Sequence record: MK962753.1 | From: Shigella phage JK32 | Reading direction: 5' to 3' (one strand) | DNA length: 64,000 bases | Part shown: positions 677-5,632 of the stretch, one piece after another | Numbering within the stretch: the stretch's first letter is position 1 | Layout: each line of letters opens with the position of its first letter | Position numbers and translations under genes: made by a program | Notes under the pieces: model-generated | What the model was told of the DNA's origin: nothing | The model's input: the letters and a program-made list of their open reading frames with translations, nothing else | Database searches by the model: none

Positions 677-919
677 TCATAGATCACAGAGCCATCTGAA
701 AGCACCACATAAAGCGAGCAGAATACTAGGTATAAACGAGACTAAAACAAGACTACAAAAATCATCTAAGGTAACGCCGGAATAGCTACCTACTGTAACA
801 ACACCGATTATCAGACACAGAAAGAAAACAAATGCAACCAGAAACAAAGTATTGCTAAACAGTTTAGTGATCATTAGACACCCCACGACGATCAATTTCA
901 AAAACTTTTTTATCATCAA
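677..919 (-). CDS. hypothetical small membrane protein
   Basis: 80-aa hydrophobic ORF; overlaps next gene by 56 nt so true start is uncertain. Confidence 0.3.
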   Translation of the reverse strand: MMIKKFLKLIVVGCLMITKLFSNTLFLVAFVFFLCLIIGVVTVGSYSGVTLDDFCSLVLVSFIPSILLALCGAFRWLCDL

Positions 920-1067
920 CGAAGCATGTCACAACTGCCTCGTTGACTTCCGCAAATTGTTGTGTTACCCACTTAAGGTCAGAGCGAAACAATGTTCTAT
1001 TAATAACAAATGTTTTACCGCTCTTATCCTTACCCATAAATTTTGCTTTAACCATATCCAATTCCAT
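864..1067 (-). CDS. hypothetical protein
   Basis: 67-aa ORF preceded by AAGGTGA Shine-Dalgarno. Confidence 0.4.
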   Translation of the reverse strand: MELDMVKAKFMGKDKSGKTFVINRTLFRSDLKWVTQQFAEVNEAVVTCFVDDKKVFEIDRRGVSNDH

Positions 1068-1076
1068 ATTATCACC

Positions 1077-1235
1077 TTATTTGCTAATCGCTAAACCCAA
1101 TCCGAAGAGAGCACCCGATGCTACAGTATACCCGAAAGTTTCAAAGGCAGTAAAGATATCTAAGCCGCCAGCTAACAGAGTTGCAGTAAACAGAGTACCA
1201 GCTACGAAAATAAAAGTTTTACCGATAAATTTCAT
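1077..1235 (-). CDS. hypothetical small membrane protein (about 52 aa, below the ORF-track cutoff)
   Basis: Read by eye on minus strand: AGGAGAATCAAA-ATG then MKFIGKTFIFVAGTLFTATLLAGGLDIF...; same RBS context as the gene starting at 1676. Confidence 0.4.
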   Translation of the reverse strand: MKFIGKTFIFVAGTLFTATLLAGGLDIFTAFETFGYTVASGALFGLGLAISK

Positions 1236-1301: not shown

Positions 1302-1676
1302 TTAAGAATATTTTACTTCGTCTACAATGTCTTTCATGACATTGATTTCCATTCCGGTCAGAACACGTTGGAACATGTGCTGCACATACGCTTTCAGGTA
1401 TTCATTTGATGGCTTACTATCGAAAGTCTTTTTAGTGTAGTAGTCATCACCGAAAGCTACTGTAATTACATTTTCGTCGTCGTTCCAAGCGATATAAGCA
1501 AATTTGCCGTTATCCCAGAAGCGAGCACTAATTGCTACTTTTGTTGAATCGAATCCTACTTCGCTGTGAGATTCAAGAACTACTTGTGTGCCAGTTTCTT
1601 TATGAATGTAGTAGCGGGATACTAAGTCAAAGTTACGGGTGTAGTGACATTCGAATTTATCTTTAAACATCATCAT
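1302..1676 (-). CDS. hypothetical protein (start reassigned to internal MMMF)
   Basis: ORF track gives 1302..1745, but the AGGAGA RBS lies just before the MMMFKDK start at 1676 and the upstream ATG falls inside a terminator T-run. Confidence 0.45.
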   Translation of the reverse strand: MMMFKDKFECHYTRNFDLVSRYYIHKETGTQVVLESHSEVGFDSTKVAISARFWDNGKFAYIAWNDDENVITVAFGDDYYTKKTFDSKPSNEYLKAYVQHMFQRVLTGMEINVMKDIVDEVKYS

Positions 1677-1713: not shown

Positions 1714-1742
1714 ATTATGCTATAGTCGTTTATGGTTGTCAA
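1714..1742 (-). promoter_or_regulatory. sigma70-like promoter (TTGACA-17-CATAAT)
   Basis: Minus strand reads GGTGTTGACAA, 17-nt spacer, CATAAT, about 35 nt upstream of the RBS of gene 1302..1676. Confidence 0.5.
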
Positions 1743-1746
1743 CACC

Positions 1747-1778
1747 TAAAAACAAAAAAACCCCGAAAAATTTTCGGG
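1747..1778 (-). terminator. rho-independent terminator
   Basis: CCCCGAAAA/TTTTCGGGG hairpin followed on minus strand by a long T-run, just past the 3' end of the 57B-like gene. Confidence 0.6.
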
Positions 1779-1786
1779 GTATAAAA

Positions 1787-2257
1787 TTACAGTTTGGTCG
1801 TCCACTCCAGGTCTAGATCTTCGACATACTCATGAGATCGGACAATCTCTAAATCGAACTCTAGGTCAGTGCCAAATTTACGCGCACCAACATCATAAGA
1901 AAGCGTGATATGCGGTACATATTCAGGATAATCCCACGTCGCACCTAAAGCAGTTCCGATATCGTGTCTGAATTGCATGTAGTCGCTTTCAAATGCCAGC
2001 ACAAGCGCATTAGTACCGGATTGAGTTTCAAACACTTTCAGATGGCATAGAGAGCCTAAAAACTTTTCACCCTCTTCTGGGATAAACGGAACATAGACAC
2101 GAGAATATAAGATAGTGCTATGCAGTTTATCACGAGGAACGGCATTAGGCAGATCGTAGAACTCCTGCAATTTTTCAATGCGGTCTAGTGTATCCTCAGT
2201 GAATTTAACAGCCGCATATGTACCTTTAACGGATTCTCGAAACGGGGTCATAATCAA
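1787..2257 (-). CDS. 57B: 2H-phosphoesterase-like protein, positional equivalent of T4 57B (Acb1-like)
   Basis: 156 aa; two H-x-[ST]-x motifs (HSTIL and HITLS) typical of 2H phosphoesterases; sits upstream of the 57A/1/3 cluster as in T4. Confidence 0.55.
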   Translation of the reverse strand: MIMTPFRESVKGTYAAVKFTEDTLDRIEKLQEFYDLPNAVPRDKLHSTILYSRVYVPFIPEEGEKFLGSLCHLKVFETQSGTNALVLAFESDYMQFRHDIGTALGATWDYPEYVPHITLSYDVGARKFGTDLEFDLEIVRSHEYVEDLDLEWTTKL

Positions 2258-2520
2258 GCCTCCGTGATCAGTTCTACTTCCTCTTTATCGTCTTCCACTG
2301 CTTCGTCTTTAGGGAGAAGTGCTTTTACTTCTTCGACAATAGCATCAAGGGAAACAGTGCCGTTTTCGTCTGGCTGAATACCCAGAATGCGTACCAGTTC
2401 CATCAATACACGCTCACGATCTTTCAGTTGGCCTTCTAAGAATGCGGCCTTTTCTTGAGTGTCAAACAGACGTACTTTCAGGACATTAATCATTTGTTCA
2501 TGCTGATTGGACATATTCAC
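2254..2520 (-). CDS. 57A: small acidic protein, positional equivalent of T4 57A (fiber-assembly chaperone)
   Basis: 88 aa, coiled-coil-like and acidic; position between 57B-like and gene 1; 4-nt start/stop overlap. Confidence 0.4.
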   Translation of the reverse strand: MNMSNQHEQMINVLKVRLFDTQEKAAFLEGQLKDRERVLMELVRILGIQPDENGTVSLDAIVEEVKALLPKDEAVEDDKEEVELITEA

Positions 2521-2546
2521 ATCTCCTACTTGTTGATAACTTTTTA

Positions 2547-3203
2547 TTAAATGTTCGCGAGAATCGCGCTTTCAAATTCTTCTAATGTACCATTATTTAT
2601 GATAATGGTTTCACCGTCAATAGGCAAAATTCCTTTTTCGGTGGAGTGAGTCGATACAATACCAGTATCACGCTGAATATGCAACACCTTAGCACCCATA
2701 GCACGCACGAGAGCAATTTCAATAGGCTGACGCACATCAACCACTACAAAATAACCTTCTTCATTTTTGCGCTTCATAAACTCATTCACGAAGAGATTAC
2801 ACCAATAAAGCGGATTGATCAAGTTAACCATTATATCAGTACCGAGAGTGGTTAACATGAGACGAATAGACCAGACGTTATTATGTTTTTCGCCGATCTC
2901 ATTAACAACCTTGTAAATCTCAGCCAGACGATCACAAGTAAAGGAACTACCGCCATACTTCGAATCTAGCATAAGCAGACACTGAATAAACCACTTATGC
3001 GCGGTATAGGTATCAATACCTAGATCGGCTTCTCTGTCACGCCCTAACCCGTCAAAGTCAAGATAAGTCAGACCTAAGTCTGGTTGACATTCGCACAATA
3101 TTTCTTTGATCGGTGCTGCCAGTTGATAACTATGTCCATCAATGATTAACGCGGCAGTGTCTTTTCCTACTCGCTTTTTACCACAAAGTGCAATCAATTT
3201 CAT
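2547..3203 (-). CDS. 1: deoxynucleoside monophosphate kinase
   Basis: 218 aa; N-terminal P-loop-like MKLIALCGKKRVGKDT resembling T4 gp1; position. Confidence 0.65.
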   Translation of the reverse strand: MKLIALCGKKRVGKDTAALIIDGHSYQLAAPIKEILCECQPDLGLTYLDFDGLGRDREADLGIDTYTAHKWFIQCLLMLDSKYGGSSFTCDRLAEIYKVVNEIGEKHNNVWSIRLMLTTLGTDIMVNLINPLYWCNLFVNEFMKRKNEEGYFVVVDVRQPIEIALVRAMGAKVLHIQRDTGIVSTHSTEKGILPIDGETIIINNGTLEEFESAILANI

Positions 3204-3218
3204 TATATAAGCCTCTTA

Positions 3219-3809
3219 TTACTTTCTAAAAGCAGGGTGCATAGCTTTAATACCTTCCACTCGCTGACGATCCGCCGCCTGAATTGCAGGGCGAGGAACG
3301 ATCAGTTGACCATCACGTTCAATGCTCATTGTTTTAAATGGAAGAATTGCAGTACATACCAGAGATTCATGCATATCATCGGTGTATGTTAACTCAAGTT
3401 CCCCCAATTGTGAACACCAACAACCATAAAAGTTAAAGGTGCATACAATATTGCGGCGTTCATTGTCCATCATGTGAACTTGAACGGCTTCCGGCATTGA
3501 ATCCTTCCACGCAGTGGAGTTACCGTTATTGTAGTCTACTATAGAAAGCATCCATGTGTAAAGGTTTAGATAGCTTTCCAAATGCTCATCAACGATAAAC
3601 CGGACTACCAACGGGTCAAACTCTACATGACTAGACGGATAATCAGCAACCGCCAAACCATATTGACCAGCAACTTGCTTAGTCGGTGGAATGGTTATAG
3701 CCGGAAGTGTAACACCTTGACAGTTTAAAGTAAAGCCTTTTGTTAGTTGACCATCTGGAATGGCAATCTGCCAGTTGCTAGGGTTAGCATAGTTAAAGAG
3801 ATTAGACAT
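3219..3809 (-). CDS. 3: tail completion / sheath stabilizer protein
   Basis: 196 aa; placed between gene 1 and gene 2 as in T4. Confidence 0.5.
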   Translation of the reverse strand: MSNLFNYANPSNWQIAIPDGQLTKGFTLNCQGVTLPAITIPPTKQVAGQYGLAVADYPSSHVEFDPLVVRFIVDEHLESYLNLYTWMLSIVDYNNGNSTAWKDSMPEAVQVHMMDNERRNIVCTFNFYGCWCSQLGELELTYTDDMHESLVCTAILPFKTMSIERDGQLIVPRPAIQAADRQRVEGIKAMHPAFRK

Positions 3810-3999: not shown

Positions 4000-4254
4000 A
4001 TGACAGAAGACATTTTGTTAAAACTCTATGATCGTTTGGATAACGAATTAGCAACATTGCGGGGTGAAGTTCTCTATTTGTCTAAATGCAATACAGATCT
4101 GCTTAAGCAGATTGCAGAAAGGGATGATCAAATAAAATCCCTTTCTGGTGCATTACGTGATCGCGACAAGGCATTAGAGATTTTACAGCGTGTTACCAAT
4201 AAGGAAGAATTAAAAGACTTCTTACATGGTTATGCTCATGCTATCGATCTATAA
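4000..4254 (+). CDS. hypothetical coiled-coil protein (opposite strand to its neighbours)
   Basis: 84-aa ORF, heptad-like charged sequence; AT-rich upstream region with repeated motif. Confidence 0.35.
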   Translation: MTEDILLKLYDRLDNELATLRGEVLYLSKCNTDLLKQIAERDDQIKSLSGALRDRDKALEILQRVTNKEELKDFLHGYAHAIDL

Positions 4255-4262
4255 TAAAAAAG

Positions 4263-4288
4263 CCCGTCATTGACGGGCTTAATTGTAT
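4263..4288. terminator. hairpin terminator, A-run one side and T-rich the other
   Basis: AGCCCGTCATTGACGGGCT hairpin between the convergent 84-aa ORF and gene 2. Confidence 0.5.
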
Positions 4289-4293
4289 GTAGT

Positions 4294-5121
4294 TTAAAAC
4301 AGTTTCCAGACTTTTCGAGCGTCGTATTTCTTGCCTTTTGACATAAACTGATAAACGGGCATCATTATGATATTGTGCCAGTCCTTCGGGGCGATCTCGA
4401 TCATCTTGGTTTGGATGTGTCCTGGTAAGTATGCTTTAATCATGTGGTCGCTTCCACGCATACCTTTTACATCGCTCCATTTGATTTTTAAGCGCGTTTT
4501 ATTGCTTAGGGTAGGTGTAGTAGCATATTGCTTTAAAAGTGCCTCTAAGAACTGTTGACGAGCTTTAGGTGGGGCATAGTGCAAGTTCAAGCCTAGCATA
4601 ATCGTATTACCCGCTTTACTCTTCCCTTCCCCTAGACAGATAATCAAAGGAAATCGATCGTAGAAAGGCAAAGAATCCTTATATTTTGGGTCATATGCAT
4701 AGGTATAGATCCGACCTACTTGTGGTTTTACTACCTGATGGCCTTTTACTCCCGCCTTAATAGTCTTCATAAACCATTCTTGCGATTTCTCTTTAGGCCG
4801 ACTCACTTTAGCCGTTTTGGTAAGAGACGCACGAAAATCATTAATAAGCATCATTGCTCGTTGTTGCTTGTTTAATCCTTTTGGGCTTTTACCCTTTAAC
4901 CGTGCAATCTCAATTGCTTGTTTAATCTCTCCTGAATAACGAGACATACTCTTAGTGAATGTTGTATAGGGTATTCCTTTTTCTTGAGCAAAGGCTTTAG
5001 CTGTCATGCCTTTGGCTTTTGCTTTAGAGAACTCTACGCCCAGATCAATCCACTGTTTAGCCTTTCTTTGTTGTGGCGTTTGCTTAACGTCTTCTTCTGT
5101 GATTATTTCAAATACGCTCAT
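4294..5121 (-). CDS. 2: DNA end protector protein
   Basis: 275 aa (T4 gp2 is about 274 aa); basic; position between 3 and 4. Confidence 0.6.
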   Translation of the reverse strand: MSVFEIITEEDVKQTPQQRKAKQWIDLGVEFSKAKAKGMTAKAFAQEKGIPYTTFTKSMSRYSGEIKQAIEIARLKGKSPKGLNKQQRAMMLINDFRASLTKTAKVSRPKEKSQEWFMKTIKAGVKGHQVVKPQVGRIYTYAYDPKYKDSLPFYDRFPLIICLGEGKSKAGNTIMLGLNLHYAPPKARQQFLEALLKQYATTPTLSNKTRLKIKWSDVKGMRGSDHMIKAYLPGHIQTKMIEIAPKDWHNIIMMPVYQFMSKGKKYDARKVWKLF

Positions 5122-5132
5122 AATATTATCCT

Positions 5133-5609
5133 CTATTTGTTAAGCCCTTTAAAACCGAATACTTTCTTTAATGCATGTTCGGTTATGATCTTAAACTCCA
5201 TGTTATGCTTTTGGCATAAATCAACCGCAGCTTTCCATTTTTCTGTGTTCACTGTGTAGGTGTAACACTCTTGCATATATCTTTGCTTAGTCTTAGTGGT
5301 TATTCTTTTTGGCTTTTGTGGTGGTATTGTCTCTTTTGCTGGTTTTACTTCCCATAAAAACTCTTTGCCATCTACAAACTTCACCCAAAAATCCATATGA
5401 TATTTTCTGGATCGTTTATCTGCGCTAGACCAGTAAGGTATAATCACACATTCAGAGTTCCATTTAGCCACGCTAGGACTACGATCCAAAAATTTCATTA
5501 TGTGCAACTCCCAGCTTGACCGATACGTGATCTTGTGCAAGTTATTCCCTTTGTACTTCTCAGGATTTTCCGGCTTATACTTGCCCTTGTAAGTGTTAGA
5601 TCCTCCCAT
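5133..5609 (-). CDS. 4: head completion protein with PD-(D/E)XK-like nuclease motifs
   Basis: 158 aa; motifs RSSWEL ... DFWVKF ... EVKP; position next to divergent gene 53. Confidence 0.6.
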   Translation of the reverse strand: MGGSNTYKGKYKPENPEKYKGNNLHKITYRSSWELHIMKFLDRSPSVAKWNSECVIIPYWSSADKRSRKYHMDFWVKFVDGKEFLWEVKPAKETIPPQKPKRITTKTKQRYMQECYTYTVNTEKWKAAVDLCQKHNMEFKIITEHALKKVFGFKGLNK

Positions 5610-5624
5610 TTTAGCACCCTTTAT

Positions 5625-5632
5625 TATAAATA
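5625..5632 (+). promoter_or_regulatory. T4-type late promoter TATAAATA
   Basis: Exact TATAAATA about 33 nt upstream of the gene 53 start. Confidence 0.55.

Follow-up and report, generated by a model that had tools for sequence, protein, structure and literature searches.

A probable Krischvirus orthologue of the T4 anti-CBASS protein Acb1, encoded directly after the tail-fibre chaperone gene 57A

The founding member of the anti-CBASS 1 family is Acb1 of phage T4, the product of gene 57B, which was identified as a cyclic-oligonucleotide nuclease by biochemistry (PMC9117128). T4 Acb1 and nine further cloned homologues all cleaved 3'3'-cGAMP and cAAA, and this metal-independent activity takes 3'3'-cGAMP, cUA, cAAA, and cAAG as substrates while leaving cGG and cA4 uncleaved (PMC9117128). 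The T4 catalytic tetrad, of the form HxT/HxT, consists of H44, T46, H113, and T115 (Hobbs et al. 2022, PMC9117128). Aromatic residues Y12, W74, F107, and W147 stack on the nucleobases, E141 touches the adenine N6, explaining the adenosine requirement, and residues 145-152 form a C-terminal lid (PMC9117128). Crystal structures have been solved for the Acb1 of Erwinia phage FBB1, both as the apo form (7T26) and with 3'3'-cGAMP (7T27) (PMC9117128). Protection from CBASS in vivo was demonstrated for T4 (PMC9117128; HIDEN-SEQ preprint, bioRxiv 10.1101/2025.11.20.689424), in which acb1 is conditionally required on a CBASS host and non-essential on CBASS-free hosts (bioRxiv 10.1101/2025.11.20.689424). 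Expression of T4 57B/acb1 is predominantly middle/late, according to a transcriptome atlas (bioRxiv 10.64898/2026.03.30.715471).

Here, we examined a counterpart of this gene in a stretch of phage DNA of 64,000 nucleotides, referred to below as the window. The list of open reading frames (ORFs) for the window includes an uninterrupted ORF at 1787-2257, as the first-pass annotation had reported without giving a strand; the ORF lies on the minus strand. Very probably, it encodes the Krischvirus (RB49-like) orthologue of T4 Acb1, with a predicted anti-CBASS role, and forms the second gene of a 57A-acb1 unit. The coding sequence, which we call acb1, runs from 1787 to 2251 on the minus strand, with 154 codons and a TAA stop. 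Its start is likely to be the ATG at 2251-2249 and not the TTG at 2257, because a GGAGG Shine-Dalgarno sequence, read directly from the sequence (2259-2263, minus strand), lies 7 nt before this ATG and within the final 57A codons, because the TTG overlaps the TGA stop (2256-2254) of upstream gene 57A, and because relatives carry the same call. Indeed, the corresponding 465-nt coding sequence is annotated in four Krischvirus records: JSE (as "57B"), GEC-3S, Whisky, and G2494. The TTG start given previously, which the ORF list also uses, was thus 6 nt too far upstream. Across the 57A stop and acb1 start, the minus-strand sequence reads ACGGAGGCTTGATTATGACCCCG.

The earlier suggestion of an Acb1-like protein was borne out by a match along the full length of the protein. 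The acb1 product scored 174.4 bits against the Pfam model for anti-CBASS protein Acb1 (PF23474; E=1.5e-51), for which the curated cut-off is 27, and the match spanned protein residues 9-152 and profile positions 1-143 of 144. A sequence search of the PDB matched a single solved structure, that of FBB1 Acb1 (E=1.8e-43), with 53% identity across 142 aligned residues (PDB 7T26/7T27). T4 57B/Acb1 (NP_049750.1) was 47% identical over its full length (E=3e-47). In PHROGs, the protein was assigned to phrog_755, which carries the label "RNA ligase", and a scan against NCBIfam matched no family model. By homology to 7T26/7T27, the protein is predicted to fold as a compact 2H phosphoesterase that carries a C-terminal lid. 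AlphaFold2 run from the single sequence returned a mean pLDDT of 37.5 and a pTM of 0.36, values too low for the model to be informative. Taken by its homology, the product would be a cyclic-oligonucleotide phosphodiesterase of the 2H-phosphoesterase family. The family to which the gene belongs has been described and curated and has solved structures, and the gene sits in that family's canonical locus; in this sense it is already known.

The first-pass annotation had drawn attention to two tetrapeptides as a 2H signature. Both are present: H44-S-T-I-L at codons 2122-2108 and H114-I-T-L-S at codons 1912-1898. The first contains catalytic motif H44-S45-T46 (CAT AGC ACT, 2114-2122, minus strand), aligning with H44/T46 of T4 Acb1, and the second contains H114-I115-T116 (CAT ATC ACG, 1904-1912, minus strand), aligning with T4 H113/T115. 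As a signature, the pair did not exceed chance when taken alone. H-x-[ST] occurs with a mean of 0.44 per 154 amino acids across window ORFs of at least 100 amino acids, and we rejected the pair as evidence by itself, as at least two such motifs occur in 4 of the 29 window ORFs of 100-220 amino acids. The identification of Acb1 here rests instead on full-length similarity, the whole-length alignment extending well beyond the two tetrapeptides.

We then mapped the residues described for catalysis and ligand contact onto the window protein by alignment, which also established that the residue numbering in PMC9117128 is that of T4. The equivalents are H44, T46, H114, T116, Y12, F74, Y108, W150, and E144, the last of which aligns with T4 E141. 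Each of the nine is either unchanged from T4 or conservatively substituted. The two substitutions, W74 to F and F107 to Y, match the residues of the active, crystallized FBB1 enzyme, which agrees with the window protein at every one of the nine positions. FBB1 differs in both host and phage lineage from the window phage. Residues H44, T46, H114, T116, Y12, and E144 were invariant across seven aligned homologues that were 28-51% identical to the window protein and came from phages of Escherichia, Acinetobacter, Aeromonas, Vibrio, Klebsiella, and Pseudomonas.

Overall, the window protein and T4 Acb1 are near-equal in size (154 and 152 amino acids, respectively) and have in common the HxT/HxT tetrad, the aromatic stack, the adenine-reading glutamate, and a C-terminal tryptophan lid. 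They differ in that the window protein has one additional residue near position 81 and, relative to both T4 and FBB1, a 2-residue insertion near 129-131, before the last strand. The lid segment aligned with T4 residues 145-152 reads LEWTTKL, compared to LDWADDLK in T4, and the lid differs from that of FBB1 as well. The insertion and altered lid could tune the specificity of Acb1. They are one reason to entertain an Acb1-family enzyme with a shifted substrate range or main target, for example one that chiefly removes the cA3 of type III CRISPR systems or other cyclic nucleotides, or that is sensed by decoy-nucleotide systems like Panoptes, for which "anti-CBASS" would be only a partial label. 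It also speaks for such a shift that cAAA is already a substrate of T4 Acb1 (PMC9117128) and that Acb1 over-expression lowered colony formation of cells carrying Panoptes (PMC12657218). However, every named contact and catalytic residue is identical in an enzyme that was crystallized with 3'3'-cGAMP, and the additional homologues tested by Hobbs et al. cleaved 3'3'-cGAMP and cAAA in nine cases out of nine (PMC9117128). We accordingly give a shifted range only a slim chance, and an orthologue with the activity of T4 Acb1 is the reading we carry forward.

Cellular and viral 2H enzymes of the LigT type have RNA ends or 2',5'-oligoadenylate as substrates and are not known to act on the cyclic oligonucleotides of CBASS. 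These enzymes, including the 2'-5' RNA ligases (PF13563, PF02834), also have two H-x-T/S motifs and show weak local likeness to the window protein near the second motif. That likeness, together with the "RNA ligase" label found on phrog_755 and on several public records, is what would favor a generic 2H enzyme that works on RNA ends, for example in tRNA repair, whether as a LigT-like 2'-5' RNA ligase or as a 2',3'-cyclic phosphodiesterase. The matches to Pfam 2_5_RNA_ligase2 (PF13563; 19.4 bits, cut-off 27, E=0.0011) and LigT_PEase (PF02834; 14.1 bits, cut-off 23.3, E=0.057) fell below the family cut-offs and covered only residues 70-126 or 98-118, whereas the Acb1 model matched over the full length and gave the best whole-length match. 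Furthermore, the ligand-specific residues E144 and Y12 and the W150 lid are conserved. The label itself looks like a legacy annotation, because T4 57B is also named "RNA ligase" in RefSeq and yet is a demonstrated cyclic-oligonucleotide nuclease (PMC9117128). A generic RNA enzyme is therefore very improbable, and we favor membership of the Acb1 family.

Annotation of this gene in public records lags behind the 2022 characterization of Acb1. Proteins at least 99% identical to the window protein are annotated as "hypothetical protein", "RNA ligase", "putative RNA 2..." or "Phage protein", and the T4 RefSeq record still carries the older name for 57B. A homologue from an Acinetobacter phage, 51% identical, is annotated as "cyclic phosphodiesterase". 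Among the papers searched, none linked Acb1 by name to Krischvirus or RB49 or reported a direct test of a Krischvirus Acb1, and no activity data on the exact window protein were found in accessible text. Krischvirus vB_EcoM-G2494 was included in the lysate screen of Hobbs et al., under the name "Escherichia phage RB49" in Supplementary Table 1 (PMC9117128). The G2494 Acb1 is identical to the window protein at 153 of 154 residues.

The genomic context matched that of T4. Reading from the baseplate side, the minus strand carries gp4 (5133-5609), gp2 (4294-5121), gp3 (3219-3809), gp1, encoding a dNMP kinase (2547-3203), and 57A, encoding a tail-fibre chaperone (2254-2514), followed by acb1; a small ORF, orf84, lies on the plus strand at 4000-4254. 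The resulting order, 4-2-3-1-57A-57B, is that of T4, with acb1 in the same slot directly after 57A, and the 3-1-57A-57B block is kept in four further Straboviridae genera (Acinetobacter, Aeromonas, Vibrio, and Klebsiella phages). From 5665, gp53, gp5, and other baseplate genes follow on the plus strand. This synteny supports the earlier placement of the ORF at the T4 57B position, on the edge of the structural region. The 57A product matched phrog_1002, "tail fiber chaperone" (E=3.3e-26), and fell slightly under the cut-off for Pfam GP57 (E=4.7e-6); 57A is also annotated in GEC-3S and JSE.

Spacing between the two genes is tight, with a 2-nt gap from the 57A stop to the acb1 ATG, compared to a 4-nt overlap of 57A and 57B in T4. 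With this gap, a Shine-Dalgarno sequence inside 57A, and no promoter-like site between the genes in a promoter scan, acb1 is very probably co-transcribed with 57A, and translation of the two is probably coupled. The unit ends at a strong intrinsic terminator predicted by a terminator scan (1750-1780, minus strand), which starts 6 nt past the acb1 stop. It comprises a GC-rich 9-bp stem, ACCCCGAAA/TTTCGGGGT, followed by TTTTTTTGTTT, with a predicted RNA folding energy of -13.4 kcal/mol (z=-2.5), and is also annotated in GEC-3S and G2494.

Beyond this terminator, the promoter scan identified a sigma70-like early-type promoter, TTGACA-17-CATAAT, matching the consensus at 11 of 12 positions (1714-1742, minus strand) and annotated in GEC-3S. 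The first-pass annotation had placed acb1 just downstream of a sigma70-like promoter, but this was an error of orientation, as the promoter at 1742-1714 lies 3' of both acb1 and the terminator, points away from acb1, and drives the gene that follows (1302-1676). We rejected it as a promoter for acb1, given that its orientation is wrong and the terminator intervenes.

For the 57A-acb1 unit itself, the scan yielded an early-type candidate by consensus match, TTGACG-17-AATAAT (10 of 12 positions; 2592-2620, minus strand), which may serve as its promoter. The candidate precedes 57A by ~75 nt, within the 3' end of gene 1, and no annotation of it was found in relatives. In RB49-type phages, overlapping early and late promoters reportedly stand in for the middle promoters of T4. 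A late-promoter-like sequence, CATAAATA, overlaps the candidate at 2601-2594. A search of the whole window for the exact T4 late-promoter sequence TATAAATA gave nine matches, none of them upstream of 57A-acb1. With one mismatch allowed, TATAAATA occurred 93 times in the window, fewer than the 129 expected by chance, and because this total is below chance expectation, CATAAATA can be taken only as a weak lead to a late promoter. All nine exact copies lie on the plus strand, at 5625, 16437, 29183, 34747, 35598, 37352, 42485, 50573, and 55311, in agreement with the plus-strand structural genes. Their number is not above chance (shuffle mean of 5.6, with 7 of 100 shuffles reaching nine).

Next, we considered conservation. 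Over its first 6 kb, the window showed 93-95% overall identity with 58 Krischvirus-type genomes, among them RB49, JSE, GEC-3S, Whisky, and G2494, which identifies the window phage, by nucleotide similarity, as a Krischvirus (RB49-like) coliphage. Using tblastn, the acb1 product was found in 1,475 phage records, with at least 99% identity in 55 of these, 95-99% in two, and 80-90% in one. The 58 close records equal the count of Krischvirus-like genomes, and from these equal counts we infer that acb1 is a core gene of Krischvirus. When acb1 was compared with GEC-3S, JSE, RB49, and Whisky, each of the four differed at 3-7 codons, all of them synonymously, which indicates purifying selection on the gene, as judged from these alignments. 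That acb1 might be an inactive or decaying remnant without present function is scarcely credible: nothing specific favors it besides the dispensability of the T4 gene on CBASS-free hosts (bioRxiv 10.1101/2025.11.20.689424), and against it stand the intact ORF, good Shine-Dalgarno sequence, intact catalytic tetrad, the lack of non-synonymous change relative to four relatives, and the near-identity of the protein in 55 genomes.

Similarity to other Krischviruses was uneven along the window. The acb1 segment showed 98-99% identity to known Krischviruses, unlike a structural block at 20001-45000 (tail sheath, terminase, portal, and major capsid), for which the best records among 50,697 phage genomes reached 86-90% identity at 80-86% coverage. 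The window thus seems to come from a Krischvirus-like genome, divergent or mosaic, with no entry of its own in this collection. A sharp mosaic boundary was also visible at ~4260-4290. On one side, the region from dmd to gp3, together with orf84, had 96-99% nucleotide identity to GEC-3S, JSE, RB49, and Whisky; on the other, gp2 and gp4 had ~77% identity to the same phages, with indels, except that Whisky gp4 reached 92%. A bidirectional terminator, identified by the terminator scan, lies at this same boundary (4260-4280). JSE carries a homing endonuclease gene at the same orf84/gene 2 junction (4285-5427 of the extracted JSE segment), which suggests that the exchange was endonuclease-associated.

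Two homologues from other phages had unusual architectures. Pseudomonas phage psageK9 (NC_074661.1, 41321-43123) encodes, beside the terminase, a 600-amino-acid protein with portal and Acb1 domains, in which Phage_portal_3 covers residues 38-385 (E=5e-89) and a C-terminal Acb1 domain with an intact HxT/HxT tetrad covers residues 457-598 (E=1.9e-43). Such a portal-Acb1 fusion would place the nuclease in the virion. In Klebsiella phage vB_KpnM_05F (Slopekvirus), Acb1 has 207 amino acids (2459-3082 of the extracted segment), with a ~45-residue C-terminal extension past the lid and a lysine where the lid tryptophan stands (W150 in the window protein).

The genes that follow acb1 differ from those of T4, where its 3' neighbor is ipI. 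In the window, the ipI slot is filled by a gene for a 124-amino-acid protein (orf124; 1302-1676, minus strand) with its own early-type promoter at 1742-1714, followed by a 52-amino-acid ORF (1077-1235, minus strand) and dmd (864-1067, minus strand; Pfam Dmd, E=7.6e-16). Dmd is an antitoxin against RnlA/LsoA. The orf124 product belongs to phrog_15253 and matched Pfam Gp30.7 below threshold (E=0.004); a PDB sequence search gave only chance-level matches (E of at least 0.09), and an NCBIfam scan returned no family. Three small unannotated minus-strand ORFs that come after dmd within 170-1745 appeared hydrophobic and membrane-like by eye. The minus-strand genes after acb1 (170-1745) may form a small anti-defence island. 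We think it unlikely, while giving it some weight, that the Krischvirus Acb1 has an altered substrate range or that acb1, orf124, the 52-amino-acid ORF, and dmd make up an anti-defence island in which orf124 encodes a new counter-defence protein.

Drawing on the published T4 and FBB1 enzymes, we can postulate how the Krischvirus orthologue would act. Expressed as the distal cistron of 57A-acb1, with transcription ending at the terminator at 1780-1760, the small metal-independent enzyme would, after infection, capture cyclic di- and trinucleotides with 3'-5' linkages that the host's CBASS cyclases produce. Its proposed ligands are 3'3'-cGAMP, cUA, cAAA, and cAAG, with at least one adenosine needed. 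Y12, F74, Y108, and W150 would stack on the ligand bases and E144 would read the adenine N6, while the C-terminal lid would shut over the bound cyclic nucleotide. H44, T46, H114, and T116 are then predicted to carry out metal-independent acid-base catalysis in which the adenosine 2'-OH attacks the 3'-5' phosphodiester, and a 2',3'-cyclic phosphate intermediate would be resolved to a linear 3'-phosphate product. With the signal gone, the CBASS effector would be left without its activator and abortive infection would be avoided.

The practical value of this assignment lies in the re-annotation of public records, and it raises no new mechanistic question. It suggests that this RB49-like coliphage, like T4, has the standard cyclic-oligonucleotide nuclease against CBASS, with its activity predicted from homology. 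The presence of acb1 would be relevant to predicting host range on E. coli that carry CBASS, for example in phage therapy.
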